The notes under the pieces: model-generated
Database searches by the model: none
The model's input: the letters and a program-made list of their open reading frames with translations, nothing else
What the model was told of the DNA's origin: nothing
Assembly (NCBI GenBank): GCA_905235755.1
Contig: CAJONA010000005.1
Span: 1-30,508, forward strand
Direction of reading: 5' to 3'
DNA length: 30,508 nt
Origin: an uncultured Clostridia bacterium
Lineage (GTDB): Bacteria; Bacillota; Clostridia; Oscillospirales; CAG-272
Program-made: the position numbers and the translations under genes
Shown here: positions 8,608 to 28,811 of the stretch, piece after piece
How positions within the stretch are numbered: position 1 is the stretch's first letter
Layout: every line of letters begins with the position of its first letter

Positions 8608-10191
8608 TCATTTTCCGCTGTCTCCGTAGTTGGAAAGAACGCGTGCCGACGGATCGTTGACGTCACACCCTTTCCACGATTTGTTGGGCATCCAAAAATC
8701 CGTAACCATTTCGGACTGTCCCGGATAATACTTCTCAAAAATTTCACGATATAGCAAAGATTCTTTTGTGAACGGCCTTGCGTGATCATATTTTACACGC
8801 CGCGCTTCAAATTCCGCATCGGTATATAAGCTTTCGGCGTATTCTTTCAGATCATCCACCATCGAGTGACCGACAGCGTCGGAAAACGCCGCTTTTTCAC
8901 GCCATAGAATGTCATCCGGCAAATAGCCGAGTCCATCGAACGCGTGGCGAAGCAGATATTTGCCCTTGCCATAGCGGTTCATTTTCATTTCGGGATCAAG
9001 GCTCATCACGTATTTCACAAAATCAAGATCCCCGAATGGCACGCGCGCTTCCAGCGAGTTTGACGAAATACATCTGTCGGCGCGCAGTACATCGTACATA
9101 TGCAGTTCGCGGAGACGTTTTTCGGCTTCCTTTTGAAATTCATCGGCGTTCGGGGCGAAATCGGTATATTTATAACCGAACAGCTCATCAGAGATCTCGC
9201 CGGTGAGCAGCACACGGATATCCGTGCGTTCGTGTATCGCTTTGCAAACAAGATACATACCCATACTTGCGCGGATCGTTGTGATATCGTACGTTCCGAG
9301 CAATCGGATAACGCTTTCGAGAGAGGAGATGACCTCCTGCGGCGTCATATACACCTCGGTGTGATCAGCCCCTATAAAGTCCGCGACCTGCCTCGCATAT
9401 TTGAGGTCGATCGCATCTTCGCTCATACCGATAGCAAAAGTTTTGATCGGCTTGCTGCTTTTTCCGGCGGCGATCGCGCATACAAGAGACGAATCAAGCC
9501 CGCCCGAGAGCAGAAAGCCGACATCGGCGTCTGCCACCAGGCGCTTTTCAACGCCCGCGATCAATTTTTCGCGTATTTTGCGGCAAGCCGTTTCAAGATC
9601 GTCGCGGCAAACGGAGTTCACGCGTGAAACGTCGCAATACGATATGAATTTTTCGCTTTTGTAATAATGTCCGGGAGGGAAGGGCGTGATCCTTCGGCAT
9701 AGTCCTGTAAGGTTTTTGGCTTCGCTGGCAAACAGGATCGTTCCATTTTTGTCGTATCCGTAATAAAGCGGACGGATACCTATAGGATCTCGAGCGGCAA
9801 TGTATTCGTCGGTTCTGCCGTCGTATATCACGCAGGCAAATTCCGCGTCAAGCATGGAAAACATTTCCGTTCCGTATTCAAAATACATCGGGAGTATGAT
9901 CTCACAGTCGCTGTCGCTTTTGAAGGAATACCCTTTGTTTTTCAGCCGCTCCCGCTCTTTTTCAAAACCGTATAATTCTCCGTTGCATACGGCATAGCAG
10001 TCGTTCAAAATGAACGGCTGCATGCCCGAGGGCGCCGGTCCCATTATCGAAAGCCTGTGAAAGCCGAGCACACCTTTGCCGGTGCCGACGATACGGCTGT
10101 CGTCGGGGCCGCGCGATTTCGTTTCTGCGAATCCTTTTTCAAAAGCGGACATGTCGGGTACGACGCCGCAATAACCAAAGACAGAACACAT
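8608..10191 (-). CDS. asnB: Asparagine synthase B (glutamine-hydrolysing)
   Basis: N-terminal Cys (MCSVFG), HRLSIM, NGELY, RDPIGIRPLY, LSGGLDSS, GEISDELFGY, LEARVPF. Confidence 0.95.
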   Translation of the reverse strand: MCSVFGYCGVVPDMSAFEKGFAETKSRGPDDSRIVGTGKGVLGFHRLSIMGPAPSGMQPFILNDCYAVCNGELYGFEKERERLKNKGYSFKSDSDCEIILPMYFEYGTEMFSMLDAEFACVIYDGRTDEYIAARDPIGIRPLYYGYDKNGTILFASEAKNLTGLCRRITPFPPGHYYKSEKFISYCDVSRVNSVCRDDLETACRKIREKLIAGVEKRLVADADVGFLLSGGLDSSLVCAIAAGKSSKPIKTFAIGMSEDAIDLKYARQVADFIGADHTEVYMTPQEVISSLESVIRLLGTYDITTIRASMGMYLVCKAIHERTDIRVLLTGEISDELFGYKYTDFAPNADEFQKEAEKRLRELHMYDVLRADRCISSNSLEARVPFGDLDFVKYVMSLDPEMKMNRYGKGKYLLRHAFDGLGYLPDDILWREKAAFSDAVGHSMVDDLKEYAESLYTDAEFEARRVKYDHARPFTKESLLYREIFEKYYPGQSEMVTDFWMPNKSWKGCDVNDPSARVLSNYGDSGK

Positions 10192-12311: not shown

Positions 12312-12340
12312 TGCAAATTCTCCTTTTTGTTCTTATAACA

Positions 12341-12389
12341 AAGAAAAAGCGCCTCTCATGTAAAATGACATGAAAGACGCCTTTGCCTT
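12341..12389 (-). promoter_or_regulatory. ANTAR-type attenuator 2 in the GS III leader
   Basis: Minus strand hairpin AAGGC-AAAGGC-GTCTT overlaps the 5' arm of a 13-bp terminator stem (GCGTCTTTCATGT/ACATGAGAGGCGC) followed by TTTTTCTTT. Confidence 0.75.
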
Positions 12390-12416
12390 CATTGTATTGA
12401 ATTTATGTCTGTAAAG

Positions 12417-12460
12417 TAAAACAGCGTCTTTGAGCCGAAAACTCAAAGACGCCATTGCCT
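12417..12460 (-). promoter_or_regulatory. ANTAR-type attenuator 1 in the GS III leader
   Basis: Minus strand hairpin AGGC-AATGGC-GTCT overlaps a perfect 11-bp terminator stem (GCGTCTTTGAG/CTCAAAGACGC) followed by TGTTTT. Confidence 0.75.
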
Positions 12461-12472
12461 TCAACGTGGGGC

Positions 12473-12501
12473 ATTATACACCTTTGCTTTCGCTTTGTCA
12501 A
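12473..12501 (-). promoter_or_regulatory. SigmaA promoter of the GS III-asnB operon
   Basis: Minus strand TTGACA-17 bp-TATAAT. Confidence 0.85.
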
Positions 12502-12564
12502 GCACTTTTTGTGATTTTTCTCGAAAAATCACGGAAAAATCGGTCGGATGTTCGCGTTTTTCTC

Positions 12565-12593
12565 TTGACAAAACGCGAAACGAGATGTATAAT
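12565..12593 (+). promoter_or_regulatory. SigmaA promoter of the split gltB/GS-like/ANTAR operon
   Basis: TTGACA(12565)-17 bp-TATAAT(12588). Confidence 0.85.
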
Positions 12594-12600
12594 GTCTGCA

Positions 12601-12660
12601 ATGAGCAAAGGCGTTCATTTACGTACAGATCTTATTCTGCGCGCAGATGGGCGCTTTTTT
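12601..12660 (+). promoter_or_regulatory. ANTAR-type attenuator in the gltB operon leader
   Basis: Hairpin ATGAGC-AAAGGC-GTTCAT overlaps a 19-bp imperfect terminator stem (12611-12654) followed by a T tract. Confidence 0.78.
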
Positions 12661-12703
12661 ATTTTTTATTTTTTATTTTTTGTATAAGGAAAGGCGAACC
12701 GAT

Positions 12704-13798
12704 ATGGTTAAAGAAGGAAATATCAGAATACCGTCGGGATGCGCGATCGCCGCTATCATATCAAGAGACGGGAACCGAATGACCGGTGAAAAAATCGTTG
12801 AGGCAATGAAGCCGATGCACGATCGCTCAAACGGACTCGGCGGCGGCTTCGCCGGCTACGGTATATATCCCGAATACAAAGATTTTTACGCGCTGCATCT
12901 TTTTTGCGACTGTCGGGATACCAGAAAAGCGTGCGAAGCGTTTTTGAGGGAGCATTTCGAGATCGTAAAAGGGGAGATCATTCCCACACGCAAAATGCCC
13001 GAGATCACCGATGAGCCGATCATATGGCGCTACTTCGTTGCGCCGCTCAAATCGGTCCTTGCCGACTTGCAGCTGGACGAGAAGGAATTTGTCGCCCGTA
13101 CTGTAATGAAGATCAATACGGAAATGGAAGGCGCCTATGTTTTTTCAAGCGGAAAGAATATGGGAACGTTCAAAGCGGTGGGATTTCCGGAGGACGTCGG
13201 TCTGTTTTACAGGCTGGACGAGTATGAAGGATACAGCTGGACGGCGCATGGGCGTTATCCGACGAATACACCGGGATGGTGGGGCGGAGCTCATCCGTTC
13301 ACACTGCTCGATTATTCCGTTGTCCATAACGGAGAGATCTCTTCCTATGACGCCAACCGCCGATTTATCGAGATGTTCGGCTATAAGTGCACATTGCAGA
13401 CCGATACCGAGGTCATCACCTACATTCTCGATTATCTGATCCGCGTGCGGAAGCTGACTATGAAAGAAGCCGCAAATGTTATCGCCGCGCCGTTTTGGAG
13501 CACGATCGAGAAACAAACGGATGAATATGAAAGAAATAAGCTGAAATATTTGAGGACCGTTTTTTCGAGCTTACTTATTACAGGTCCGTTTTCTATCGTT
13601 CTCGGATTTAACGGAGGCCTTATGGCGCTGAATGACCGATTGAAGCTTCGTTCCATGGTCGTGGGCGAAAAAGACGATCTCGTATTTATCGCCAGTGAAG
13701 AGGCGGCGATCCGCGCGATGGAACCTGATGCCGGAAACATTCGGGCGCCTGCAGGCGGAGAGCCGGTGATCGTTACCGTAAAGGAGGGAAAGTTCTGA
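12704..13798 (+). CDS. gltB: Class II glutamine amidotransferase subunit of a split (archaeal-type) glutamate synthase
   Basis: MVKEGNIRIPSG-CAI propeptide and Cys; AHGRYPTNT, GAHPF, HNGEISSY, TDTE, DRLKLRS; start at ATG 12704 after AAGGAAAGG. Confidence 0.88.
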   Translation: MVKEGNIRIPSGCAIAAIISRDGNRMTGEKIVEAMKPMHDRSNGLGGGFAGYGIYPEYKDFYALHLFCDCRDTRKACEAFLREHFEIVKGEIIPTRKMPEITDEPIIWRYFVAPLKSVLADLQLDEKEFVARTVMKINTEMEGAYVFSSGKNMGTFKAVGFPEDVGLFYRLDEYEGYSWTAHGRYPTNTPGWWGGAHPFTLLDYSVVHNGEISSYDANRRFIEMFGYKCTLQTDTEVITYILDYLIRVRKLTMKEAANVIAAPFWSTIEKQTDEYERNKLKYLRTVFSSLLITGPFSIVLGFNGGLMALNDRLKLRSMVVGEKDDLVFIASEEAAIRAMEPDAGNIRAPAGGEPVIVTVKEGKF

Positions 13799-15306
13799 TG
13801 GACGGCGCAGCATTTATTTACCCGGAATTTGAAGTGATCCGTAATTCGGACCGTTGTATCGCGTGCCGCGTATGCGAGCGACAGTGCGCAAACGAAGTAC
13901 ATTCGTTCAACAGTGAACGGGGCAAGATGCAGAGCGACGAAGCAAAATGCGTCAACTGTCAGCGGTGTGTGTCGCTCTGCCCGACCGGAGCGCTCAAAAT
14001 CATCAAAAGCGACTGTTCATTATGTGAAAACGCAAACTGGCAGAACGACACGATCAAAGAGATATATAAGCAGGCAAACAGCGCGGGGGTGCTCCTTTCT
14101 TCTATGGGAAATCCGAAGCCGTTGCCGGTCTATTGGGACAAGATACTGATCAACGCCTCGCAGGTCACAAATCCGCCGATCGATCCTCTGCGTGAGCCGA
14201 TGGAAACAAAGGTCTTTCTCGGCAAAAAGCCCGCGGAGATCCGTCGGGACGAAGACGGCAAACTGATCTGCGAAATGCCTCCTCAGATCGAGCTTTCCAT
14301 GCCGATCATGTTTTCCGCGATGAGCTACGGCTCAATCAGCTACAACGCTCACGCCTCTCTTGCCCGTGCCGCGACAGAACTCGGGATTCTTTATAACACG
14401 GGCGAAGGCGGACTCCACGAGGATTTTTATCAGTACGGCAAAAACACGATCGTTCAAGTCGCATCCGGCCGCTTCGGCGTTTATGAGGATTACCTCAAAG
14501 CAGGCGCCGCGATAGAGATAAAAATGGGACAAGGCGCAAAGCCGGGTATCGGAGGGCACCTTCCGGGCGCAAAGATCGTCGGCGACGTTTCCCGCACCCG
14601 CATGATCCCCGAAGGATCGGACGCCATATCTCCCGCGCCTCACCACGATATCTATTCCATCGAGGATCTGCGCCAACTCGTGTTTTCACTGAAAGAGGCG
14701 ACTGAATACACAAAGCCCGTCATCGTTAAAGTTGCCGCCGTTCACAACATTGCGGCCATTGCGAGCGGCATTGCCAGAAGCGGCGCGGATATCATTGCGA
14801 TCGACGGATTTCGCGGCGGCACAGGCGCCGCGCCGACGAGAATACGGGACAATGTGGGCATTCCGATCGAGCTTGCTCTCGCCGCCGTCGATCAAAGATT
14901 GCGCGACGAAGGAATACGCGGCAACGTTTCGCTTGTTGTGGGAGGCTCTGTCAGAAGTGCGGCGGACGTCGTCAAGGCGATCGCTCTCGGAGCGGACGCC
15001 TGTTATATCGCCACGGCGGCGCTGCTTGCGCTCGGCTGTCACCTCTGCCGCACTTGCCAAAGCGGAAAATGCAACTGGGGGATCGCAACACAACGGCCTG
15101 ACCTTGTAGAGCGCCTCGATCCCGATATCGGCAGCAAAAGGCTGATCAACCTTATGACCGCGTGGCGCCATGAGATCATGGAGATCATGGGCGGTATGGG
15201 GATCAACTCAATAGAAGCGCTCCGCGGCAACCGCTCTATGCTCCGCGGCGTCGGACTAAACGAAAAAGAACTTGAGATCCTCGGTATCTCTCACGCGGGG
15301 GAGTAG
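13798..15306 (+). CDS. gltB: Glutamate synthase FMN-binding subunit with N-terminal 2x[4Fe-4S]
   Basis: CIACRVCERQC, CVNCQRCVSLCP; AMSYGS, NTGEGG, EIKMGQGAKPGIGGHLPG, SPAPHHDIYSIEDL, CHLCRTCQSGKC. Confidence 0.93.
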   Translation: MDGAAFIYPEFEVIRNSDRCIACRVCERQCANEVHSFNSERGKMQSDEAKCVNCQRCVSLCPTGALKIIKSDCSLCENANWQNDTIKEIYKQANSAGVLLSSMGNPKPLPVYWDKILINASQVTNPPIDPLREPMETKVFLGKKPAEIRRDEDGKLICEMPPQIELSMPIMFSAMSYGSISYNAHASLARAATELGILYNTGEGGLHEDFYQYGKNTIVQVASGRFGVYEDYLKAGAAIEIKMGQGAKPGIGGHLPGAKIVGDVSRTRMIPEGSDAISPAPHHDIYSIEDLRQLVFSLKEATEYTKPVIVKVAAVHNIAAIASGIARSGADIIAIDGFRGGTGAAPTRIRDNVGIPIELALAAVDQRLRDEGIRGNVSLVVGGSVRSAADVVKAIALGADACYIATAALLALGCHLCRTCQSGKCNWGIATQRPDLVERLDPDIGSKRLINLMTAWRHEIMEIMGGMGINSIEALRGNRSMLRGVGLNEKELEILGISHAGE

Positions 15307-15307
15307 T

Positions 15308-15436
15308 ATCAAACGTGCTTATGCAAACGGATAACGGCGCGTCGGCTGTCACATTTGCGAATACGAATGCGCATTTGCCGATTCGGGCTTGACGCTATCA
15401 ATGATGCACTTGATAAAAAAGTTGCGTCAAATTTGA
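15308..15436 (+). pseudogene. Remnant of a 4Fe-4S dicluster protein gene
   Basis: Frame from 15308 reads I(ATC)KRAYANG*RRVGCHICEYECAFADSG, colinear with the N-terminus I recall for the ferredoxin-like subunit of such clusters (MKRVYVNEEWCLGCHLCEYNCAFANSG). Start codon and first Cys lost, in-frame stop, rest of gene absent. Confidence 0.7.
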
Positions 15437-15481
15437 TTTTTCACAAAAAATACGTAGAAAAAAGTTTGGAGGCGTTGTATA

Positions 15482-16201
15482 ATGGTCATACAGGCCGCAA
15501 GCCTTGATCATAAGGCTATAAATGATGCGCTGCGCGGACAGGAAACGGACTGCACCGTTGTCGGATGTCTCGGCCAGCGGTTTATCGGCGCCGGAATGTC
15601 GGACAAAACCGTCGTGATCGACGGCGTGCCGGGAAATGCGCTCGGCGCATATCTGAACGGCGCGCAGATAACTGTCAACGGCAATGCGCAGGACGCCGTC
15701 GGAGACACGATGAACGACGGAAAAATCATCATTCACGGCAACGTCGGGGACGCCGCGGGATACGCTATGCGCGGCGGCACGATCTATGTGAAAGGCAACG
15801 CGGGTTACCGCGCCGGTATTCACATGAAAGCCTATCACGACAAAATCCCCGTTATCGTCATCGGCGGACGCGCCGGAAGCTTTCTCGGGGAATATCAAGC
15901 GGGCGGAATCATAGTCGTGCTGGGAGTAGGCGGAGATGAAAAACGTATCGTGGGCAATTTTCCGTGTACGGGAATGCACGGCGGAAAGATGATCCTTCGC
16001 TCCGATTGCGCCGACATTGATTTTCCCGGACAGGTGAGCGCACGACCTGCGTCACCCGATGAGATGAAAGAAATAAAAAAATATGTAACGGAATACTGTC
16101 GGCTGTTCGGGTATGACGAAAGCGATATCATGAACTCGATTTTCACCGTCGTTACGCCGGACACCGAAAATCCGTACAAACAACTATATGTTGCAAACTG
16201 A
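15482..16201 (+). CDS. gltB: Glutamate synthase GXGXG beta-helix subunit
   Basis: Repeated GNAQDAVGDTMNDG / GNVGDAAGYAMRGG / GNAGYRAGIHM / GSFLGEYQAGG turns. Confidence 0.9.
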   Translation: MVIQAASLDHKAINDALRGQETDCTVVGCLGQRFIGAGMSDKTVVIDGVPGNALGAYLNGAQITVNGNAQDAVGDTMNDGKIIIHGNVGDAAGYAMRGGTIYVKGNAGYRAGIHMKAYHDKIPVIVIGGRAGSFLGEYQAGGIIVVLGVGGDEKRIVGNFPCTGMHGGKMILRSDCADIDFPGQVSARPASPDEMKEIKKYVTEYCRLFGYDESDIMNSIFTVVTPDTENPYKQLYVAN

Positions 16202-16220: not shown

Positions 16221-17429
16221 ATGAAATATTCAAAAGAAGAGGTCATGCAGTACGTTTCGGAGGAGGACGTCAAATTCATACGCCTTGCTTTTTGCGACGT
16301 GTTCGGAAAGCAGAAGAACATTTCGATCATGACGGACGAACTGCCGCGCGCTTTTGAATACGGCATAGCTTTTGACGCTTCGGCGATCGCCGGATTCGGC
16401 GGCGAAACACATTCCGATCTTTTTCTCCATCCGGACCCCGAAACGCTGACGTGGCTTCCGTGGCGGCCGGAACACGGCAAGGTCGTGCGAATGTTCTGCT
16501 CTATCACATATCCTGACGGCAAGCCGTTTGAATGTGATACAAGAAGCCTGCTTAAAAAAGCGATCCTTGACGCAAAAATCGCCGGCTGCACCTTCTATTT
16601 CGGCTCTGAGCAGGAGTTCTATCTTTTTGAACTCGATGATAAAAATATGCCTACAAAGATCCCTTACGACCGCGCCGGTTACATGGACATCGCGCCGGAG
16701 GACAAGGGGGAAAACGTGCGGCGCGAGATCTGCCTTACATTAGAGCAAATGGGGATCCACCCGGAGAGTTCTCATCACGAGGAAGGTCCGGGGCAAAACG
16801 AAATAGATTTCAGGTACACGGAAGCTCTTACCGCCGCCGACGATGTGATGACATTCCAAACGGTTGTTAAAACGGTTGCGCGCCGTAACGGACTGTATGC
16901 CGATTTTTCGGCGAAGCCGCTCGATGACGCTCCCGGAAACGGCTTTCATATCAACGCGTCGGTAAAACCCGACGATTCATCCGAAAATCTTCACCGCATG
17001 ATCGCCGGCGTTTTGGACAAGGCTGTTCCGATGACGGCTTTTCTGAACCCGACGGACGATTCATATCGGCGGCTGGGGCAGATGAAAGCGCCGCGTTATA
17101 TTTCATGGTCTGCCGAAAACCGCTCTCAGCTTGTGCGCATCCCCGCCGCCGCAAACGAATATCGCCGCGCGGAGCTGCGCTCTCCCGATCCTTATGCCAA
17201 TCCGTATATTGCGTTCGCGCTGATGATTTGGGCGGGGCTGCACGGGATCGAGGACAAAGTCGATTTGCCGAAATCAGTCGATATCAATCTGTATAAAGCA
17301 GAAGAAAAAATACTCTCGACGCTGACAAAGCTTCCTTCAACTCTTGAAGAAGCGAAAAAGGCGGCGGCGTCTGACGAATTCATCAAAGCGCATATTCCGG
17401 TCGAGATACTGGAATTTTACTGCAAATAA
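16221..17429 (+). CDS. Glutamine synthetase type I-like protein, C-terminally short with altered Glu flap
   Basis: GSEQEFYLF, HHEEGPGQNEID, GNGFHIN, NRSQLVRIP, ELRSPD retained; flap loop reads RLGQMKAP; 402 aa from ATG 16221 (GGAGG RBS). Confidence 0.88.
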   Translation: MKYSKEEVMQYVSEEDVKFIRLAFCDVFGKQKNISIMTDELPRAFEYGIAFDASAIAGFGGETHSDLFLHPDPETLTWLPWRPEHGKVVRMFCSITYPDGKPFECDTRSLLKKAILDAKIAGCTFYFGSEQEFYLFELDDKNMPTKIPYDRAGYMDIAPEDKGENVRREICLTLEQMGIHPESSHHEEGPGQNEIDFRYTEALTAADDVMTFQTVVKTVARRNGLYADFSAKPLDDAPGNGFHINASVKPDDSSENLHRMIAGVLDKAVPMTAFLNPTDDSYRRLGQMKAPRYISWSAENRSQLVRIPAAANEYRRAELRSPDPYANPYIAFALMIWAGLHGIEDKVDLPKSVDINLYKAEEKILSTLTKLPSTLEEAKKAAASDEFIKAHIPVEILEFYCK

Positions 17430-17466
17430 TGACGCTTTGAAAAAATGGTGAAAGGAGGGACGGGTT

Positions 17467-18054
17467 TTGAGCCTGAAAGAACAAGTGTACAGCGTTCTGG
17501 TAGCTTCGGCATCGGAAAAATTCAACCGGGTACTGCCTGAAATATTTCCCGTTTCCGCTTTTTCGCCTGTCAAGGTCGTTCTCGATATCAGCGCTGCTAA
17601 ACGCGCGCTGTCGGAACGGGATTTTGATTTTGTGATCGTGAATTCACCGCTTCCCGACGATGCGGGTATCCGCTTTGCCATCGATACGAGCGATTCCTAT
17701 AATACGGTCGTTTTGTTTCTGGCAAAAACGGAACAATATAATGACGCATATGACAAGCTGGCGCAGCACGGCATTTTCCTGCTTCAAAAGCCGCTGTCGA
17801 TGACAGTGCTTCAAACCGCATGCGGGTGGCTTATCAGCGCACGCGAGCGGATCAGAAAAACGGAAAAAAAGACGCTTTCGATAGAAGAAAAAATGAACGA
17901 GATACGGCTTGTCAACCGCGCCAAATGGCTGCTTATAAGCGAGCTCAAAATGACCGAGCCGGACGCGCACAGATATATTGAAAAGCAGGCGATGGACCGC
18001 TGCGAGTCAAAACGTCAAATCGCCGAGGAGATCATTAAAATTTACGGTAATTGA
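17467..18054 (+). CDS. ANTAR-domain RNA antiterminator with pseudo-receiver domain (AmiR/NasT/NitR-like)
   Basis: C-terminal RLVNRAKWLLISELKMTEPDAHRYIEKQAMDRCESKRQIAEEII; receiver lacks the acidic pair and has Asn at the phospho-acceptor position (FVIVNSPLPD); TTG start after AAGGAGG. Confidence 0.9.
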   Translation: MSLKEQVYSVLVASASEKFNRVLPEIFPVSAFSPVKVVLDISAAKRALSERDFDFVIVNSPLPDDAGIRFAIDTSDSYNTVVLFLAKTEQYNDAYDKLAQHGIFLLQKPLSMTVLQTACGWLISARERIRKTEKKTLSIEEKMNEIRLVNRAKWLLISELKMTEPDAHRYIEKQAMDRCESKRQIAEEIIKIYGN

Positions 18055-18095
18055 AGAAAGGGAAGTCGATCGGCATTACGGTCGAATAAACAAAA

Positions 18096-18153
18096 AAGGC
18101 CTTCTGAACTCCGCTGCAAAACACAGCGAAAGCTCGAAAGCCTTATTTTTTTT
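18096..18153 (+). terminator. Probable terminator of the gltB-ANTAR operon
   Basis: AAGGC...CGCTG-CAAAACA-CAGCG...GCCTT interrupted hairpin followed by a T tract. Confidence 0.5.
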
Positions 18154-18323
18154 ATGTTTTTCATCATTCACTGAGCGGTTTGCCGTAAATATTGAGCCCA
18201 TAATATTTATTTACGACTTCAAGCAGCTCCACTTCGTTAACAGGCCCAAAAGTAACGCTGCGCGGGTTCATAATCGTTATTTTTATTTCACCGTTTTACA
18301 ATAATGATCGCGGAGATTTTTTC

Positions 18324-18589: not shown

Positions 18590-18673
18590 ATGAAACAACA
18601 ACGAAAAATCATCAAAAACAAAGACAGCGGCTATGTTTCCGAGTTCGGAAGCGTGGTCGCTGTTCTGTTATGA
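18590..18673 (+). CDS. Putative 27-aa peptide MKQQRKIIKNKDSGYVSEFGSVVAVLL
   Basis: GGGAGGT RBS upstream of ATG 18590; TGA abuts the AAAGGA RBS of the next gene. Confidence 0.45.
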   Translation: MKQQRKIIKNKDSGYVSEFGSVVAVLL

Positions 18674-18686
18674 AAGGAAAACGAAC

Positions 18687-19040
18687 ATGACGGAAAAGCA
18701 ACTTAAAGCAATCGGCGAGCGTATTAAAGAAAAGCGAGATTCGCTCGGTATCAGTCAAACAGATCTCGCGGAAGGTTTGGGTATTACAGTTCCCTACCTC
18801 GAACGCGTTGAGAAAGGAACAAAATCTATGTCCATCGAAACACTTATGGCGATAAGCGAAAAGCTCGGCACGACAACGGACTACATACTTCGCGGAAGAG
18901 ACGTAAATCAGTCGGAGCAAACGCTCGATGAGGTAAAAGACATATTCAATTCCTTCACCGCCGAGCAAGCAAAAGACGCGCTGTTTATACTTGAACAGGT
19001 GCGTGACTTATGGGAGATGAGAAAAAATGGGAATAAATAA
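18687..19040 (+). CDS. XRE-family HTH regulator
   Basis: IGERIKEKRDSLGISQTDLAEGLGITVPYLERVEKG...ISEKLGTTTDYILRG; start at ATG 18687. Confidence 0.9.
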   Translation: MTEKQLKAIGERIKEKRDSLGISQTDLAEGLGITVPYLERVEKGTKSMSIETLMAISEKLGTTTDYILRGRDVNQSEQTLDEVKDIFNSFTAEQAKDALFILEQVRDLWEMRKNGNK

Positions 19041-19590
19041 AAATATACCGTTCTTCATACCAAAGGCGGAAAAGGTAAAAGTCGAGCCGCCATATACCGT
19101 TGTGGTATGGTATGAGACAGACGAAATATACAGTCTCAATATGGAGAAGTACATCCGAGAACACGATGAGTATACAGCGCTTCTTGACAATCCGGACTTG
19201 TTCAAAACCGTCGAAGTCGGTCTTGACGGATACTCTCTCGAATGGAACATTGACGGCAAAATCATAACATTTCATACCGACAATGTGTTCCTCTATGGAA
19301 AATGCCTTGTGGGATATATGGATCTCATCTTGTACGAAACCGTGAGAATCGTATCCATAATCGCCAAAACAGACAAGTCCCGTTCAAAGGAATGGAGAGA
19401 TAAGCGGAAAGGTCAAAATGGTTGGCTTGAAATAAGGGAGGATGTGCGAAAGCGGCAATGCTTCGCAAAATTTGAAAGATTCAACGGAGAAGGATTTAAG
19501 ACAAGTCAAGGAAAGTACACGGCAGATAAAAAACAAATTGTGTTTGAAACGGAGAACAATATATATACGTTCGATGTTATAAGCAGTTAA
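19027..19590 (+). CDS. Hypothetical protein, N-terminal DUF2442-like domain plus unknown C-terminal domain
   Basis: LLDNPDLFKTVEVGLDGYSLEWN resembles the DUF2442 core; overlaps the XRE gene end. Confidence 0.6.
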   Translation: MGINKNIPFFIPKAEKVKVEPPYTVVVWYETDEIYSLNMEKYIREHDEYTALLDNPDLFKTVEVGLDGYSLEWNIDGKIITFHTDNVFLYGKCLVGYMDLILYETVRIVSIIAKTDKSRSKEWRDKRKGQNGWLEIREDVRKRQCFAKFERFNGEGFKTSQGKYTADKKQIVFETENNIYTFDVISS

Positions 19591-19613
19591 AAAACGGATT
19601 TGTGACACGTAAA

Positions 19614-19650
19614 AAGGCGGGTAGTACGTTTACACTATCCGCCTTATCTT
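19614..19650 (+). terminator. Intrinsic terminator
   Basis: AAGGCGGGTAGT-ACGTTTAC-ACTATCCGCCTT followed by ATCTTT. Confidence 0.7.
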
Positions 19651-19767
19651 TGACGCCGTTAAACCGCGTTATCAAGCCAAAAATGCAGTTTTACGGCCTT
19701 TTTCATATCCGTTTTTTACCTAAAATAGAGATGTCTGAAATGTAATAAAAAATTTTTTGTACGCCTA

Positions 19768-19818
19768 TTGACAACCGAACGTTTGTTTGATATAATGAAT
19801 ATTGAAAACAAATGTTCT
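19768..19818 (+). promoter_or_regulatory. SigmaA promoter with two LexA (SOS)-box-like sites
   Basis: TTGACA(19768)-17 bp-TATAAT(19791); CGAACGTTTGTTTG at 19776-19789 and AAAACAAATGTTCT at 19805-19818 versus Firmicute consensus CGAACRNRYGTTCG. Confidence 0.7.
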
Positions 19819-19895
19819 TATTTGTTCGGCGGTACAAACTGATCTTTGAAAAAGTAAATAAAGATGATGATAAATATTGAAGGATATTTTCAGCA

Positions 19896-19945
19896 AGCCG
19901 CCGACATGAAAATAAAAAACTGATTTTTTGTCGGCGGCTGTTTTT
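19896..19945 (+). terminator. Intrinsic terminator ~140 nt downstream of the SOS-box promoter
   Basis: Perfect 11-bp stem AGCCGCCGACA/TGTCGGCGGCT followed by GTTTTT. Confidence 0.75.
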
Positions 19946-20526
19946 ATGAAAAACTATTTCAAATAAAAAATATCAAAGACATAGGAACATTTTAAGTTTT
20001 CCGTGTTGGTACATATAAGGAGGTGATGCAGATTTTTGACAACTTAATGATCTGCCGATGAGATACACATACATAAGATTCTGCGATGACAGCAAGAGCG
20101 ATCTTGTGCCGAGGAGAAAGGCGAGCAATTGCCCTCAATCGAGGACGGGTAAGCGGATATCCGTATGTAATACATGGTCGATACGAGCGTAGGAACGGCA
20201 TCGGGTAAACAGGCAAAAACAAAACGGATGTGATACGGAGTGTTGAACTTTCTCTCATCATAAAATTTTACATCTGAAAAACGCCCTAAAGGAGGTTGTG
20301 GACTACCCCTTTGTTCACAGTGGACACACAAAGTTAACATATCAAATTAAATATACAATTGAAGAAAGAAAGGTATATAAAGTATATAAAGGTGACATAG
20401 GCGAATCGATTTTTCTTTCCCAATTGTATTCAGGTGATGAACGTGACGTATAAAACACGGCGCAGATATCCTTTCGCTCCTTGCGACCCTCGCGTTCCTG
20501 AATGGCACAAAATCAACCGATTTTAA

Positions 20527-20634
20527 GGGGACCCCGCAAAGTCGAATGACTTTGTGGGGAGAGGAGGAAGAACGGTGGGAGCGTAATTTCGCGCTCGCGC
20601 GGAATGAGCAAGTCACACGTTGCTTCCGACGACG
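20527..20634. repeat. Hairpin-rich element resembling a Clostridiales interspersed repeat
   Basis: CCCCGCAAAGTC-GAAT-GACTTTGTGGGG hairpin followed by AGAGGAGGAAGAACGG...GAGCG...CGACGACG. Matches a repeat pattern I recall from Oscillospiraceae-type genomes; only one copy in this window. Confidence 0.55.
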
Positions 20635-20686
20635 TGGCAAGCATAGCGCGAGGACGTCCTCGCACAAATTGTCGGGCAGAAGCCCG
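20635..20686 (-). other. oriT of the MOBP module
   Basis: Minus strand: perfect 16-bp palindrome GCGAGGACGTCCTCGC (20648-20663) followed by GCTATGCTTGCCA, matching the pC221-type nic core TGCTTG^CCA; second IR CGGGC-AGAA-GCCCG; upstream of mobC. Confidence 0.75.
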
Positions 20687-20771
20687 CACCCACTTACCTT
20701 TCTTTGAAAAGAAAGTGTAAGCCAAAGAAACTTCAAATAAAAAAGTTAAATTAAAAATCAAGGAGAAAAAA

Positions 20772-21086
20772 TTGAGCAGAAAGCAAACAGAAACAATAAC
20801 CATTCGGCTGACAAAAGAAGAAAAACTTGCACTTGAAAAGAAAATGTACGACGCGCTGTCCCCGTCGATGCGTCGGTTCATTCTCGATATGTGTATGACG
20901 GGAAAGGTCATCGTAAACGAAGATTTAAGAGCGGTAAACCGAGAACTCAAATATCAGGGGAATAACTTAAATCAGCTTGTTCACCTTGCACACGAAGGAC
21001 GCGTACGAGTGATAAATCTATCGGAAACGCTTTCCGTTTACCAAAAAACACTTATGGCAATGGAGAAACAAAATGGCGATAGTTGA
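20772..21086 (+). CDS. mobC: Relaxosome accessory protein MobC
   Basis: RHH N-terminus (TITIRLTKEEK) and ELKYQGNNLNQLVH motif; overlaps the relaxase start; TTG start after AAGGAG. Confidence 0.88.
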   Translation: MSRKQTETITIRLTKEEKLALEKKMYDALSPSMRRFILDMCMTGKVIVNEDLRAVNRELKYQGNNLNQLVHLAHEGRVRVINLSETLSVYQKTLMAMEKQNGDS

Positions 21087-22350
21087 AAGCATACCCGAAA
21101 GAAATCAATCTCCGTCGGTGCAAAACTCCGTGATAAACTACTGTTGCCGCGCCAATAAGACTTCACTCGACGAGCACACCGTCTACGTTTCGGGAGTGAA
21201 TTGTGTTCCCGAACTTGCACAGCAGTCTTTCCTTTCCACGCAGAAACTTTACGGGCATAAGTCCGGTACGCCGAGATTTTATCAGTACATACAATCGTTT
21301 CACCCGAACGAAAAAGTGTCGCCCGATATGGTACATAAGATAGGACTCGAACTCGCAAAGGCATTCGGAAACAGAGAAATCGTTGTCGCAACGCATATCG
21401 ACCGCGAGCATCTTCACAATCATTTTGTCGTCAACAGTTACGATATCGAAACAGGAAAGAAACTTCATTCAAACAAATTCTTTCTCGCAGGACTTCGTGA
21501 AAAGAGCGATGAGATATGTATGAAATACGGGCTGTCGGTGCTGGAAAAGTACGATCCGAATAAGAAGTCCACCCGTCCGAACTCAAAGGAATACCGCGCG
21601 GCGCTCGGCGGCAGCAGTTGGAAGATAAAGACGTGTATCGACATAGATGATTGTATGAGATACGCCGTATCGAAAGATATGTTCGTCGAACTCATGTGCG
21701 AGCGTGGATATGAAATAACGTGGACGGATACAAGAAAGAACATTACGTTTATCAAAGATAACCGTCGAGTACGGGACAATAATCTGCACGATGAAAAATA
21801 CTTAAAGGAGAATATAGAAAATGAACTCAAAATCAGAGAGCAATTATTTGGATATGCTCAAAGCGAAGAACAGACCGAAAGCACCGATAAGCGAGGAAGA
21901 TATGGAAAGGTTATCGGATATAATATCACGACTGGAAGATATGACAGAGGAGATGAAAACAGCGGCAGACGCGCAGATACAGGCGGCAAAAACGTCGATA
22001 GAGCTGATAACCGAGAAAAGCATCGAACGGGTTGGGAGAGCGAGCGCGCTCGGCTCATTTCGGGTGAAAATAAGGGATATGCTCGACGATATTCTGTGGA
22101 TACTGCGTCTCATCGCTATGGCGACGCCGACGGTTCTCGTGCTGGCGCTGTGGGCTTATGTCGGCTTGCGGTAAACGCCGCGTCGATGTTCGATAATGGC
22201 GATGAAACCGAGCAAGAGCGAAAGGAGCGCGAGGCTCGAAACGCCGGAGCATTACTCGGCACGGCGATAGGTCTTGTCGCCGGCGCGGTGATAGCCGCGA
22301 ACGAAAACGATGATGTCGGAGAAAACGACTCTCCGATACAGACCATGTAA
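21073..22350 (+). CDS. MOBP-type relaxase/mobilisation nuclease
   Basis: Motif I INY, motif II QYIQSFHPNE, motif III HIDREHLHNHFVVNS. Confidence 0.92.
   Translation: MAIVESIPERNQSPSVQNSVINYCCRANKTSLDEHTVYVSGVNCVPELAQQSFLSTQKLYGHKSGTPRFYQYIQSFHPNEKVSPDMVHKIGLELAKAFGNREIVVATHIDREHLHNHFVVNSYDIETGKKLHSNKFFLAGLREKSDEICMKYGLSVLEKYDPNKKSTRPNSKEYRAALGGSSWKIKTCIDIDDCMRYAVSKDMFVELMCERGYEITWTDTRKNITFIKDNRRVRDNNLHDEKYLKENIENELKIREQLFGYAQSEEQTESTDKRGRYGKVIGYNITTGRYDRGDENSGRRADTGGKNVDRADNREKHRTGWESERARLISGENKGYARRYSVDTASHRYGDADGSRAGAVGLCRLAVNAASMFDNGDETEQERKEREARNAGALLGTAIGLVAGAVIAANENDDVGENDSPIQTM
21821..22174 (+). CDS. Overprinted 117-aa coiled-coil protein with C-terminal membrane segment inside the relaxase gene (+1 frame)
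   Basis: AAAGGAG 10 nt before ATG; helical charged N-terminus; hydrophobic tail ILWILRLIAMATPTVLVLALWAYVGLR. Confidence 0.55.
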   Translation: MNSKSESNYLDMLKAKNRPKAPISEEDMERLSDIISRLEDMTEEMKTAADAQIQAAKTSIELITEKSIERVGRASALGSFRVKIRDMLDDILWILRLIAMATPTVLVLALWAYVGLR

Positions 22351-22470
22351 ATATGTCTGAAATCTTAATTTTTCAGAATATATCTGGACTTTTGACCTGC
22401 CGTATGATATGTTTGCTTTGCACGGACATATCATCGGACAAGGTCATAGGTACATAAGAAAGGAATGCCT

Positions 22471-22698
22471 GTGGCGAAAGAAAACAAACCGAAAATAGAT
22501 TCAGTGTCATACATATATGCGGGGACGAATAAAGAATTTGATTCTTTTCTGAAATCCGTTATCAAGGACTATATATCCGACGATAAGACCGTGCCGGATA
22601 AAAAACAAGAAAAACAGAACGTTGGGAGGAAAACAAAATGCGAGTATGGCTGTATTACCGACTGTCAAGAGATGAGGATAAAGAACTCAATTCAATGA
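22471..22698 (+). CDS. Small protein preceding the serine recombinase (possible directionality factor)
   Basis: AAGAAAGGA RBS, GTG start (MAKENKPKIDSVSYIYAGTNKEFDSFLKSVIKDYIS...); overlaps recombinase start. Confidence 0.6.
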   Translation: MAKENKPKIDSVSYIYAGTNKEFDSFLKSVIKDYISDDKTVPDKKQEKQNVGRKTKCEYGCITDCQEMRIKNSIQ

Positions 22699-24305
22699 CA
22701 AACCAAAAGAAAATCCTTGTCGAGTACGCCGAGAGTCGCGGCTATACGATAATCGGAGAATCGTTCGACGACAACGTGAGCGGTATGCATTTCAACCGCG
22801 AGGGGATAGAAAAAATACAGGACGAGGTAGAAAAGAGGACAATAGACGCCGTCATCGTAAAAGACCTATCGCGTCTCGGCAGACACAAGACGCAGACGGC
22901 AATGTTCATCGACTATCTGCGCGAGAATGACGTCAAGGTATTGTCGGTCACGGAAAACATAGATACAAGCAATGAGGACGACGAATTGCTCGTCGGCTTC
23001 AAAGGGATTTTCAACGATATGTACTGCCGTGATATATCAAAGAAAATACGCGCGGGATATAAACAAAAACAGCGAGAAGGTATCGTTCTTATCCCGCCTA
23101 TGGGGTATTTCAAAGATAAGAACACGGGAGAGGTGGTGATCGTCGAAGAACAAGCGGAAATCGTTCGAAAAATATTCAATCTTTATCTGTCGGGATACGG
23201 TCTCAAAACAATAGCGAGAATGCTCAATGGGGAGGGCATAAAATCGCAAGGGTACTATCAACTCAAAACGCTCGGCAAGAGTATCGGAAACAACAAACCC
23301 GAAATAGCGCACCGATTTTTGTGGGAGAATACCGGTGTCAGGCGAGTGCTTCAAAATGAGTTTTACACGGGAACGCTCGTGTGTCACAAGTCATATACGA
23401 ATAAGATAAATCATGTGAGAAAAGAGCTTCCGCCCGAAGAACATTTTCGTCACGAAAATTATGTGCCTGCAATCATATCAAAGGAGATATGGGAGCAGGC
23501 ACAGCTTTTGCTCAAAGACAAGGTAAAGCGCAGCGTGAGAGCGTCATCGGGAAAGCCGTATCACAGATATACGGGACTGCTCGTGTGCGGGGAGTGCGGA
23601 TCGAGTTTTTCATGCAGGATAAGGAGATGGGGCAGTCTCCCCGACCGTATGGAATATGTATGCAACGGTCATCATAGGTACGGCAAGGAGCATTGTTCAT
23701 CGCACAGAATAGACGAAGCCGACCTTGACCGTCTCATATACGATGAACTCAAACGGCTGCGCGACGAAGCCCATGAAAACTATGAAAGCATCGAAAACGA
23801 AGTAAAGCGGTGGCTCTCGCAGAAAAACACCGTTGATAAAAAGATAAAAGATCTTTCGTCCCGCCTTGCCCAAAGGCGCAGCGACCAACAGATGATACTG
23901 CTTGAACGTATAAGAGACCGAGAACACGCTGATATCTATACCGATATGCTGAACAAGTGTGAAAGTGAGATAAAAATTCTTTCATCACAAATTGAGAGTA
24001 TCAAAAACTTCGATGAAACGATAAAAAATCGAAAAGCAGAAATGAAAAACAGTATCGAAATAATGGACAATATAATATTGGACGGCGCAGTAAGCAACGC
24101 AAATCTTCGACTGCTTATCGATAAAATAGTTATACATGAGCATGAGAGAAAACTTGACGTCAGCATACTCATAAAAGCCGATTTCAGACAGCACATCGAC
24201 TTTTACGACGAAAACGGCGAGATAAGCGAAAAGGTATTCGAGTGCGTGGAGCACCCGAGCGAAATAAGCGAGGAATTTATTGATGCGATGATTGCAGGGG
24301 ATTAA
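22638..24305 (+). CDS. Large serine recombinase (integrase)
   Basis: YYRLSRD catalytic Ser, DDNVSG, VKDLSRLGR, recombinase domain (PPMGY), Zn ribbon CGECG...CNGH...C, coiled coil; GGGAGG RBS. Confidence 0.95.
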   Translation: MRVWLYYRLSRDEDKELNSMTNQKKILVEYAESRGYTIIGESFDDNVSGMHFNREGIEKIQDEVEKRTIDAVIVKDLSRLGRHKTQTAMFIDYLRENDVKVLSVTENIDTSNEDDELLVGFKGIFNDMYCRDISKKIRAGYKQKQREGIVLIPPMGYFKDKNTGEVVIVEEQAEIVRKIFNLYLSGYGLKTIARMLNGEGIKSQGYYQLKTLGKSIGNNKPEIAHRFLWENTGVRRVLQNEFYTGTLVCHKSYTNKINHVRKELPPEEHFRHENYVPAIISKEIWEQAQLLLKDKVKRSVRASSGKPYHRYTGLLVCGECGSSFSCRIRRWGSLPDRMEYVCNGHHRYGKEHCSSHRIDEADLDRLIYDELKRLRDEAHENYESIENEVKRWLSQKNTVDKKIKDLSSRLAQRRSDQQMILLERIRDREHADIYTDMLNKCESEIKILSSQIESIKNFDETIKNRKAEMKNSIEIMDNIILDGAVSNANLRLLIDKIVIHEHERKLDVSILIKADFRQHIDFYDENGEISEKVFECVEHPSEISEEFIDAMIAGD

Positions 24306-24451
24306 ATGTCAAGAAAAAAGTATGTGTATAAATTGTCGATAAGCTTTTCAACACTATTCCATCGAAAATCAAAATAATAATATGCGGTAAAAACAGCAAA
24401 CGCTTCTGCCGCTCTTTTTAATAAAAAGTTATGATATGCTAACGAAAAATA

Positions 24452-24480
24452 TTGACAAGCTAAATAAAAAGGTTTATAAT
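24452..24480 (+). promoter_or_regulatory. SigmaA promoter of the R-M operon
   Basis: TTGACA-17 bp-TATAAT. Confidence 0.8.
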
Positions 24481-24509
24481 GTATATGATGTATATTGTTG
24501 GAGGCTGAT

Positions 24510-24719
24510 ATGACCATATCGGAAGAAATCAAGGTTTTGTGCGTAAGATCAAACATCAGTATGGCAGAACTTGCGAGACGCATCGGGATTTCACCGCAAA
24601 GCCTTAACGGTAAAATGAAAAGAGAGAGTTTTACAATCTCTGAACTTGAAGTGATTGCTGATGCAGTTGGTGCATCTTTTGAAAGAAAATTCATTCTCTA
24701 CAACGGAGAAGAAGTATAA
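24510..24719 (+). CDS. Small XRE-type HTH protein, probable R-M controller
   Basis: MTISEEIKVLCVRSNISMAELARRIGISPQSLNGKMKR; GGAGG RBS; first gene of the R-M operon. Confidence 0.8.
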   Translation: MTISEEIKVLCVRSNISMAELARRIGISPQSLNGKMKRESFTISELEVIADAVGASFERKFILYNGEEV

Positions 24720-24734
24720 TCAAAGGAGCTTTAT

Positions 24735-25802
24735 ATGCCTGTATTTAAATTGGGAGAGTTATTCTGCGGTCCGGGCGGTCTGGCTTGGGGTGCGATGAAT
24801 GCAGACATTGGCAATCCGCAATTTAAAATCGTTCATCAGTGGGCGAACGATTATGACCTGGATACTTGCCATACATACATCCGTAATATCTGTCCTCAAA
24901 ATGCGGATAGTGTCATCTGCGGCGATGTAAGAAAACTGGATTTGCAATCATTGCCGGAAATTGATGCGCTTGCTTTCGGGTTTCCATGCAATGACTTTTC
25001 TGTAGTAGGCGAACAAAAAGGGTTTGATGGAAAATTCGGTCCACTGTATACCTACGGTGTCCAAGTCTTGAAAAGTCACAGACCGCAGTGGTTTCTCGCT
25101 GAAAACGTGGGCGGTCTTCGCAGTGCTAACGAAGGAAACGCTTTCAACAAAATCCTTTCCGACATGAAAGCGGCGGGATACCGCGTATACCCGAATCTTT
25201 ATTGCTTTGAAAGATACGGCGTCCCACAGGCCAGGCATCGAGTCATTATTGTTGGCATTCGCGACGACATTCCTTATGAGTTCAAAGTGCCAAGTTACCG
25301 TCCGTATGAAAATGTTGATGTGACTTGTCGGACGTCCATTGAAAATCCGCCGATTCCTTTCAACGCGCCAAACAATGAAGAAACAAAGCAGTCCGCGACT
25401 GTGGTCGAGCGGCTGAAATATATTAAACCCGGGCAAAACGCTTTTAATGCTGATCTTCCGAAAGAATTACAGCTTCATGTTCGCGGGGCGAAAATCAGCC
25501 AAATTTATAAACGGCTTGACCCGGATAAGCCGGCCTATACGGTGACCGGATCAGGCGGTGGAGGCACTCACATTTATCATTGGAGTGAACCGCGAGCTTT
25601 GACGAATCGTGAGCGCGCCAGATTGCAGACTTTCCCGGACAACTATGTTTTTGAAGGATCAAAAGAATCTGTGCGAAAACAAATCGGGATGGCTGTCCCA
25701 TGCCGTGGAGCAAAAATCATTTTTGAGGCAATATTAAAGACATTTGCCGGGATTGAGTACGAGAACATTGAATCTTCTTTGAAAGATGAGGTCGATATAT
25801 GA
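24735..25802 (+). CDS. DNA cytosine-5 methyltransferase, M.BbvI-like (predicted GCWGC)
   Basis: GELFCGPGG, FGFPCND, ENVGG, TVTGSGGGGTHIYHWSEPRALTNRERARLQTFPD and QIGMAVP closely follow M.BbvI as I recall it. Confidence 0.9.
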   Translation: MPVFKLGELFCGPGGLAWGAMNADIGNPQFKIVHQWANDYDLDTCHTYIRNICPQNADSVICGDVRKLDLQSLPEIDALAFGFPCNDFSVVGEQKGFDGKFGPLYTYGVQVLKSHRPQWFLAENVGGLRSANEGNAFNKILSDMKAAGYRVYPNLYCFERYGVPQARHRVIIVGIRDDIPYEFKVPSYRPYENVDVTCRTSIENPPIPFNAPNNEETKQSATVVERLKYIKPGQNAFNADLPKELQLHVRGAKISQIYKRLDPDKPAYTVTGSGGGGTHIYHWSEPRALTNRERARLQTFPDNYVFEGSKESVRKQIGMAVPCRGAKIIFEAILKTFAGIEYENIESSLKDEVDI

Positions 25803-27358: not shown

Positions 27359-27360
27359 AT

Positions 27361-28305: not shown

Positions 28306-28310
28306 TTTCT

Positions 28311-28742
28311 ATGGCGGATAATCATTCAAAAGAAATACGCAGTATGAATATGTCCCGTATCCGGAGCAAAAACTCAAAACCAGAAGAAACGGTGCGAAAG
28401 TATTTGTTTTCCAAAGGGTTTCGATATAGAAAGAATGTAAATGACCTACCAGGAAAACCGGATATTGTTCTGCCTAAGTATAAAACGGTGATATTTGTCA
28501 ACGGTTGCTTTTGGCACAAGCACGATTGTCCCCGTTTCGTATGGCCGTCTTCCAACAAGGAGTACTGGGTTCCCAAAATTCAGAGGAATGTTGAACGGGA
28601 CATTGAAAACACTCGCCTCCTTGAAGAACAAGGGTGGCAGGTGTTGACTGTCTGGGAATGTCAGCTGAAGCAGGGGGAGTTCGAGAATGCTTTGCTGAAT
28701 CTTGTTGAACAAATAATTGTGAACATATCCAAGAGCAACTAA
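28311..28742 (+). CDS. vsr: Very short patch repair endonuclease
   Basis: RSMNMSRIRSKNSKPE, GKPDIVL, FVNGCFWHKH, YWVPKIQRNVERD, VWEC; start ATG 28311. Confidence 0.93.
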   Translation: MADNHSKEIRSMNMSRIRSKNSKPEETVRKYLFSKGFRYRKNVNDLPGKPDIVLPKYKTVIFVNGCFWHKHDCPRFVWPSSNKEYWVPKIQRNVERDIENTRLLEEQGWQVLTVWECQLKQGEFENALLNLVEQIIVNISKSN

Positions 28743-28771
28743 ACTGTTTGGTTATGATATTCCTTTATGCC

Positions 28772-28811
28772 ACACGGGATTCCCTCTCAGAGAAGGGGTC
28801 CCGTGTTTTTT
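28772..28811 (+). terminator. Terminator between convergent vsr and S8 remnant
   Basis: ACACGGGAT...GTCCCGTGT stem followed by TTTTT. Confidence 0.65.

Follow-up and report, generated by a model that had tools for sequence, protein, structure and literature searches.

A degenerate glutamine synthetase beside a pseudo-receiver ANTAR protein: a candidate nitrogen-sensing antitermination pair of gut and rumen Clostridia

A 30,508-nucleotide stretch of DNA from an uncultured Clostridia bacterium of the Oscillospirales (assembly GCA_905235755.1, contig CAJONA010000005.1), hereafter the window, encodes a protein resembling type I glutamine synthetase (GS-I) immediately followed by an ANTAR protein, and it also encodes a type III glutamine synthetase (GS III). 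The window is contig C5 of a metagenome-assembled genome (MAG) of 1.54 Mb, 88.8% complete and with a contamination of 3.2%. The locus raises the question of what a second, visibly altered glutamine synthetase (GS) does, and of how its ANTAR neighbour, whose receiver lacks the residues for phosphorylation, is controlled. A first-pass annotation, made from the letters of the DNA alone, had proposed that the GS-like protein senses glutamine, glutamate or a nucleotide and controls the ANTAR protein, which in turn acts on three nearby leaders. In this study, the most likely reading is that the GS/ANTAR pair is a new variant both of partner-controlled ANTAR systems and of systems in which GS acts as a regulator. 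We regard it as an even call whether a GS-derived sensor of 2-oxoglutarate (2-OG), and perhaps of ATP or another nucleotide or of glutamine, controls the pseudo-receiver ANTAR antiterminator, probably by inhibition.

The GS-I-like protein and its ANTAR neighbour

The GS-like protein starts at the ATG at 16221, which yields 402 amino acids and matches about 120 database homologues. Its residues were compared with those of Bacillus subtilis GS (4lnf) through a HMMER alignment, and B. subtilis numbering is used for them. The metal, ATP and glutamate ligands are all kept (E132, E134, E189, E196, H245, R298, R316, R321, R331, E333, and R335), and 13 of 14 catalytic residues are retained. The Glu flap, RLVPGYEAP in B. 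subtilis, reads RL-GQMKAP, with one residue deleted and E304 replaced by Lys. The segment FVRIEESD reads FGGETHSD, so that R62 is Gly, and S56 is replaced by Ala. Moreover, 12 residues are deleted on the C-terminal side of the GxGxHxN motif, and the protein stops about 25 residues short of the B. subtilis C-terminus, without the helix that joins the two hexamer rings. These comparisons bear out what the first-pass annotation had read, namely that the metal and substrate motifs are kept while the flap, the RIEESD motif, the loop and the C-terminus are altered. Profile searches recovered both GS domains, the beta-grasp N-domain (PF03951, 85.7 bits) and the catalytic C-domain (PF00120, 292.9 bits), and the NCBIfam GlnA model (TIGR00653) scored 355.4 bits, under its curated equivalog cut-off of 429.15. 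In an alignment-based AlphaFold2 model, the closest structure was the 2-OG-bound GS of Methanosarcina mazei (8s59; TM 0.96).

The ANTAR gene begins 37 nt past the GS-like gene, with a TTG start 7 nt after GAAAGGAGGG, a strong ribosome site. Its output domain (PF03861) scored 56.5 bits against a cut-off of 27.3 and can be aligned to Rv1626 and AmiR, and its receiver domain (Response_reg) scored 23.9, below the cut-off of 30.2. As the first-pass annotation had stated, the acidic pair is absent and the acceptor site is Asn: the phospho-acceptor region reads DFVIVNsplP where Rv1626 has DLVIMDvkMP, and the acidic pair is replaced by Ala/Val-Ser; K108-P109 is retained. N59 is invariant in 80/80 close relatives. 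Also in agreement with that annotation, no histidine kinase was found among the large open reading frames of the window. Given that the receiver is not phosphorylatable, some partner or ligand must determine how active the ANTAR protein is.

Conservation of the pair was examined at two depths. The first search with the GS-like protein returned more than 8000 database homologues. The close set comprised 80 species-level genomes whose GS-like protein is 73-84% identical to that of the window; these relatives are rumen and gut Clostridia, e.g. Acutalibacteraceae, Oscillospiraceae and Lachnospiraceae. The ANTAR gene lay 13-90 nt downstream of the GS-like gene in 79/79 close loci with room for it, and the GS-like, ANTAR, GS III and leader features are kept in 80 related loci, which is not chance. 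For the class-wide sample, 399 Clostridia genomes were taken; GS-I was found in 197, and 100 GS-I loci were fetched. An ANTAR gene was just downstream in 94 of the 100. Three classes of GS-I were distinguished. Classical forms have the RLVPGYEAP flap, keep R62 and carry a C-terminal extension 25 residues long; in intermediate forms the flap has its Glu but is short of one residue, R62 is gone and the extension measures 27 residues; short forms have the Lys flap, a shortened loop and an extension of 0-6 residues. The ANTAR gene was present behind 12/17 classical, 30/30 intermediate and 52/53 short forms, and the contig of the single short-form miss leaves no room for it. The acceptor site was Asn in 51 of the 52 partners of short forms, and mostly Asn across all classes. 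About one quarter of the sampled genomes carry a short or intermediate GS-I. Thus, the proposed tight linkage of a conserved, degenerate GS-like protein to a pseudo-receiver ANTAR protein holds. Because the ANTAR gene adjoins classical GS-I too, the glnA-nitR pairing predates the degeneration. The expectation that loss of the flap and truncation would go together with ANTAR adjacency was therefore borne out in part: the two losses do coincide in one clade, but adjacency is class-wide and independent of both, and flap loss was rejected as its predictor.

A tree rooted on the classical forms placed the short forms as one clade nested in the intermediates. The sister of the short clade (L145) has the Lys flap with its C-terminus still present, giving a series from classical forms, through a shortened flap without R62 and a Lys flap (L145), to truncated forms. 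The flap residue was Lys in 47/56 short forms and Glu in 1/56, and 13/14 catalytic residues were retained in 41/56. In eight members of the short clade, 4-7 of the 14 catalytic residues are replaced (E132R, R316F/Y, R331Y, E333Q, and D53N); judged by these substitutions, the eight cannot be enzymes. In all eight, the reading frame is intact, the ANTAR gene is still adjacent, and the seven pocket residues described below are all in place. At one further locus (L192, G257:C1:1929000-1937000), the GS-I gene before the ANTAR gene is split, with residues 1-94 and 90-400 in two same-strand reading frames about 1.8 kb apart, suggesting an insertion (insertion sequence or intron) inside the gene. At another (L081, the P0126 locus), an intermediate GS-I of 439 amino acids with the flap Glu kept is followed by the ANTAR gene and then by CTP synthase, and GS III and an AmtB-PII gene fusion lie divergently beside it.

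The 2-OG pocket of Methanothermococcus GS (MtGS) is formed by F18, R20, A34, R88, R174, R175 and S191 (PMC10799026; PMC11957540). At these seven positions the window protein reads FRSRRRS, the positions having been mapped by numbering transfer via the B. subtilis alignment and not by structural superposition. The pocket residues are kept in 52-56 of 56 short forms, position by position; the pocket is lost in L082, the one short form that lacks an ANTAR neighbour. B. subtilis GS instead has Y20, E36 and T83, which block the pocket, and replacement of R62 by Gly (the MtGS state) or Asp abolishes the glutamine feedback lock (PMC10799026). Glutamine had been among the signals put forward; a sensory role stands as a proposal, but with the R62/E304 glutamine lock gone and the pocket residues invariant in the degraded members, 2-OG is at least as likely. 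An equivalence of window S35 with M. mazei S38 was dropped, since the numbering offsets mismatch, and that of MtGS A34 with B. subtilis E36 was used.

Leader RNAs, a proposed mechanism and its alternatives

The three predicted leaders proved to carry ANTAR-type hexaloop hairpins overlapping strong terminators (12335-12670). Each contains a small hairpin with a 5-6 bp stem, closing pairs C:G and G.U, and an AAAGGC or AATGGC loop, in which A1 and G4 match the ANTAR consensus (PMC3369931). In all three, the 5' arm of the terminator starts inside the hairpin; in the leader of the glutamate synthase (GOGAT) operon, this arm consists of the hexaloop plus the 3' arm of the hairpin. There is a single hairpin per terminator and no P1+P2 pair, and the GOGAT-leader hairpin lies at the predicted transcript start, so that there is no room for P1. 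In relatives, the same design precedes GS III, glutamate dehydrogenase, GOGAT or the GS-like operon. From the relatives' fetched loci, 127 distinct leader sites were chosen by loop and terminator alone; the stem pairs in about 75% of them, with G:C and A:U exchanged at pairs 3 (GC in 52, AT in 30) and 4 (AT in 48, GC in 24). None of the known RNA families reached the Rfam gathering score in the leaders. A plain genome search for GCAA[AT]GGCG was uninformative (99 matches, mostly coding). When loop, stem and terminator were required together, only the three window sites were convincing; there were 8 other matches against 3-5 in shuffled sequences, and no wider regulon could be defined in this 89%-complete MAG.

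In the mechanism that we propose, the GS-like and ANTAR genes would be a sensor-antiterminator pair placed last in the operon under its own control. The ANTAR protein, probably dimeric, would bind the small leader hairpin (C:G and G.U closing pairs, AANGGC hexaloop) in the nascent RNA. With the hairpin held, its 3' half would be kept from the terminator stem and transcription would read through into the GS III-asnB unit, the GOGAT operon and, in relatives, glutamate dehydrogenase. The partner of the ANTAR protein would be the GS-I-derived protein encoded just upstream. This partner has kept the ATP, Mg and glutamate sites together with the inter-subunit 2-OG pocket of archaeal GS-I-alpha, and has lost the flap Glu and R62, residues of ammonium chemistry and of the glutamine feedback lock, as well as the C-terminal helix that ties the rings. 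Under nitrogen sufficiency, with 2-OG low, the ANTAR protein would be held inactive by the GS-like oligomer; upon nitrogen limitation, when 2-OG goes up, the oligomer would rearrange and the ANTAR protein would be released. Glutamine synthesis proper would be done by GS III, which is likely the working GS of this genome. What the data themselves establish is the sequence features, the linkage of the genes, the overlapping design of hairpin and terminator, and the evolutionary series that leads from an enzyme to dead forms; that 2-OG binds, that the two proteins touch and in which direction control runs are steps that we infer. In its full form, in which a GS-derived pseudo-enzyme in many gut and rumen Clostridia binds 2-OG at the old inter-subunit pocket, and an oligomeric change captures or releases a non-phosphorylatable ANTAR protein to open single-hairpin attenuators before GS III, GOGAT, glutamate dehydrogenase and asnB, the proposal is tentative, and we place it slightly on the doubtful side of even.

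Several observations speak against this mechanism. The pocket residues are also conserved in classical clostridial GS-I and hence are not special to the sensor-like forms, and the mapping of the pocket by numbering transfer is a further reservation. The window protein departs from an enzyme mainly at its flap and, going by its residues, may have residual or altered ligase activity. The genome encodes a PII protein, an alternative possible 2-OG sensor, and adjacency alone could reflect autoregulation of a glnA-nitR operon. Furthermore, of the 139 sampled genomes in which a search recovered the ANTAR protein, 11 are without GS-I, and in 9 of these 11 the protein is a true NitR-like pseudo-receiver. 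The idea that the ANTAR protein never occurs without GS-I was rejected by these nine, in which no GS-I was found genome-wide, and GS-I is thus not needed for the ANTAR protein to exist or work in those lineages. The orphan genes are located immediately behind the GXGXG gene or beside GS III. They are easier to reconcile with a partner that inhibits than with one that activates, and they also fit control of the ANTAR protein by something else. A conserved ANTAR neighbour with ligand sites exists, but it is of another fold than the AmiC and NasS partners, and nine genomes are without it. Loci with a NitR-like ANTAR gene and no intervening GS-I are L185-L191 and L197 (genomes G051, G024, G124, G357, G346, G392, G062, and G195), and in most of these genomes no GS-I was found at all.

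The strongest alternative is that short GS-I is still an enzyme, either a Lys-flap glutamine synthetase or a gamma-glutamyl ligase for another amine, and that the ANTAR protein adjoins it only because NitR belongs to the operon under its control, the signal reaching it otherwise, via a ligand of the pseudo-receiver, PII or GS III. The 13/14 catalytic residues, together with the Tyr loop, are kept in the window protein and in 41/56 short forms; gamma-glutamyl-amine ligases keep the ATP, glutamate and metal sites while the ammonium site changes; and the same type of ANTAR protein stands behind classical, surely active GS-I. The nine genomes with an ANTAR protein and no GS-I, and the PII gene, fit this view as well. 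On the other hand, none of the known amine-ligase families fits the window protein better than GlnA, and clade members without metal and ATP ligands still retain the fold together with the 2-OG pocket and an adjacent ANTAR gene. The flap Glu corresponds to E304 in B. subtilis and E327 in Escherichia coli. It is required for the ammonium step of GS (PMC10799026; established enzymology). Moreover, a short or intermediate form was the only GS in 0/83 sampled genomes, GS III or a second GS-I always being present, whereas a classical form was the only GS in 4/17; since related genomes are not independent, this comparison is a consistency check and not a statistical test. We regard an enzymatic role as unlikely, although deserving serious consideration.

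A further alternative, in our judgement improbable, is that the GS-like protein is a non-catalytic sensor of 2-OG or a nucleotide with another target, e.g. GS III or the split glutamate synthase. It lies in the same operon as the GOGAT genes in most loci, divergent from GS III, its pocket and fold are kept in dead members, and orphan ANTAR genes occur; but the ANTAR neighbour is kept at loci without GOGAT genes (L007, L048, L055, L061, L083, and L081), and the GS-then-ANTAR order with its short gap is almost invariant. That the GS-like gene is a decaying, functionless glnA remnant would agree with the stepwise loss of catalytic features, but is already contradicted by a reading frame that is interrupted in only one of 103 fetched loci (by a TAG in G017), the 73-84% identity across the 80 species-level genomes, at least 95% conservation of 88/402 columns among members down to 43% identity to the window protein, and a confident AlphaFold2 model (pLDDT 94), and we consider it very improbable indeed.

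Operon layout and neighbouring features

The coordinates of the features are collected in Table 1. The rightward operon consists of three separate glutamate synthase domains (12685-16201) followed by the GS-I-like and ANTAR genes. GS III, which had been called complete, does carry its three domains, and is 85-95% identical to copies in related loci. Two perfect sigma-70 promoters diverge within 12473-12593.

Table 1. Features of the nitrogen-assimilation locus, in window coordinates.
Feature	Coordinates	Strand	Remarks
Asparagine synthase (glutamine-hydrolysing), asnB	8608..10191	-	Directly downstream of GS III
Type III glutamine synthetase (GS III), 698 aa	10215..12311	-	GSIII_N, Gln-synt_C, Gln-synt_C-ter; complete
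Second GS III leader unit	12335..12392	-	Hexaloop AAAGGC 12384-12379; overlaps 17-bp terminator, z = -7.6
First GS III leader unit	12410..12466	-	Hexaloop AATGGC 12456-12451; flanks GAAGGC/GTCTT; overlaps 17-bp terminator, z = -5.35
Consensus sigma-70 promoter, GS III-asnB unit	12473..12501	-	Mirror image of plus-strand promoter
Consensus sigma-70 promoter (TTGACA-17-TATAAT), GOGAT/GS-like/ANTAR operon	12565..12593	+	Kept in related loci
Antiterminator hairpin ATGAGC[AAAGGC]GTTCAT, GOGAT operon leader	12601..12618	+	Begins few bases from predicted transcript start
GOGAT operon leader terminator	12608..12670	+	T-run after stem; -25.9 kcal/mol, z = -4.85
Class II glutamine amidotransferase domain of split glutamate synthase	12685..13798	+	Start 12685 chosen, behind AAGGAAAGG ribosome site; read from the DNA in preference to 12647 of the open reading frame list
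2x[4Fe-4S] plus FMN glutamate synthase domain	13798..15306	+	Domain profile matches
GXGXG domain of glutamate synthase	15482..16201	+	Domain profile matches
Short GS-I-like protein, 402 aa	16221..17429	+	Lys flap, R62 lost, shortened loop, no C-terminal thong
NitR-like ANTAR protein with pseudo-receiver, 195 aa	17467..18054	+	Asn59 at acceptor site, acidic pair lost
Probable operon-end terminator	18092..18155	+	AAGGCC...GGCCTT-type stem then T8; read from the DNA, a simple terminator scan did not call it

The two promoters form a 31-nt inverted repeat whose arms (12472-12502 and 12564-12594) are 74% complementary, so that the GS III-asnB and GOGAT units start from mirror-image sequences. The gap between the FMN-domain and GXGXG genes (15306-15482) is 176 nt in the window, and likewise in L057, L060, L063, L067, L072 and L075; it is about 1.7 kb in most related operons (L002, L005, L009, and others). 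No obvious electron-input subunit was seen in the window operon. In the same MAG, contigs C58 (3-856) and C65 (4201-6291) carry a second GS-like/ANTAR pair and a second GS III. The second pair is cut by a contig end, is 86% and 89% identical to the window pair, and may be a paralogue or reflect strain mixing. The second GS III is 68% identical to that of the window, and its leader has a terminator but lacks a clean AANGGC hairpin; relatives commonly have two copies of GS III. The genome has a single PII gene, on the minus strand of contig C1 (6170-7000); its leader, about 340 nt long, follows a consensus promoter, ends in a terminator and may represent a riboswitch or a T-box-like element.

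Past the operon and its probable terminator, the DNA is that of a mobile element (18633-30221), which includes an HTH protein, a MobA/VirD2 relaxase (21073-22350), a large serine recombinase (22638-24305), and an AlwI/FokI-type endonuclease between two C5 cytosine methylases (24735-28305). Group II intron RNA domains were identified at 29926-30221 (Rfam).

Comparison with known systems

The closest known arrangements are the glnA-nitR pair of Clostridium saccharobutylicum and C. acetobutylicum and a cluster of C. thermocellum, in which, as in the window, an ANTAR (NitR) gene stands behind a GS-I gene and glutamate synthase genes are linked to the two. The GS of C. saccharobutylicum and C. acetobutylicum is an active enzyme; the window GS-I differs in its Lys flap and in the absence of R62 and the C-terminal thong, and some of its relatives are clearly dead. 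Upon deletion of the type I GS of C. thermocellum, nitrogen-assimilation genes reportedly go up despite high glutamine. The same operon is present in that organism (Clo1313_2030-2036; PMC4676874), and the title of the deletion study, as given by a citing source, is that loss of the type I GS "deregulates nitrogen metabolism" (Rydzak 2017). For glnA-nitR, antitermination upon nitrogen limitation has been proposed (PMC6316151, citing Stutz 2007; PMC4676874). In the literature searched, there was neither a proposal of a GS-like protein as an ANTAR receptor nor, since the description of glnA-nitR, a demonstration of the signal of NitR or of GS as its partner.

AmiC and NasS are periplasmic-binding-protein-like sensors of amide or nitrate. 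In Pseudomonas aeruginosa, AmiC controls AmiR, a non-phosphorylated pseudo-receiver ANTAR protein, as an adjacent ligand-binding partner (PMC3369936), and in Paracoccus denitrificans NasT is likewise controlled by its partner NasS (PMC5424462). By comparison, the candidate partner in the window would be an enzyme-derived oligomer. The window leaders resemble those of the EutV/eut system in the A1/G4 hexaloop, the conserved closing pairs and the overlap of hairpin and terminator (PMC3369931); however, EutV targets have two hairpins (P1 and P2) and EutV a phosphorylated receiver, whereas the window has one hairpin and a pseudo-receiver.

B. subtilis GS-I-alpha passes nitrogen status to TnrA and GlnR by direct binding (PMC6316151; PDB 4s0r, 7tf6-7tfe), and the first-pass annotation had drawn this parallel. 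It turned out to be only a loose one: that interaction needs glutamine locked by R62 and E304 (PMC10799026), neither of which the window protein has; its targets are MerR-type DNA-binding proteins, whereas the candidate target here is an RNA-binding antiterminator; and B. subtilis GS stays fully catalytic. Of the archaeal 2-OG-activated GS-I-alpha, that of Methanothermococcus thermolithotrophicus has its seven pocket residues, with a small residue at position 34, and the Gly at the R62 position matched by the window protein, and oligomer assembly of M. mazei GlnA1 is driven by 2-OG (PMC11957540). MtGS and GlnA1, however, are active and have the flap Glu, C-terminal helices and no ANTAR linkage.

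If GS-I or its dead descendants were the receptor of NitR, the phenotype of the C. thermocellum glnA deletion would be explained. Being very widespread among rumen and gut Clostridia, the system bears on gut nitrogen use and on the engineering of cellulolytic clostridia. Should the proposed mechanism be true, an enzyme would have become the receptor of an RNA-level nitrogen regulon, and classical glnA-nitR would represent the ancestral state, in which one protein does both jobs. The clostridial forms would then make up a series, found in nature, that leads from an enzyme to a pseudo-enzyme sensor, and would offer a third route, besides TnrA/GlnR and the cyanobacterial inactivating factors, by which GS carries nitrogen information.

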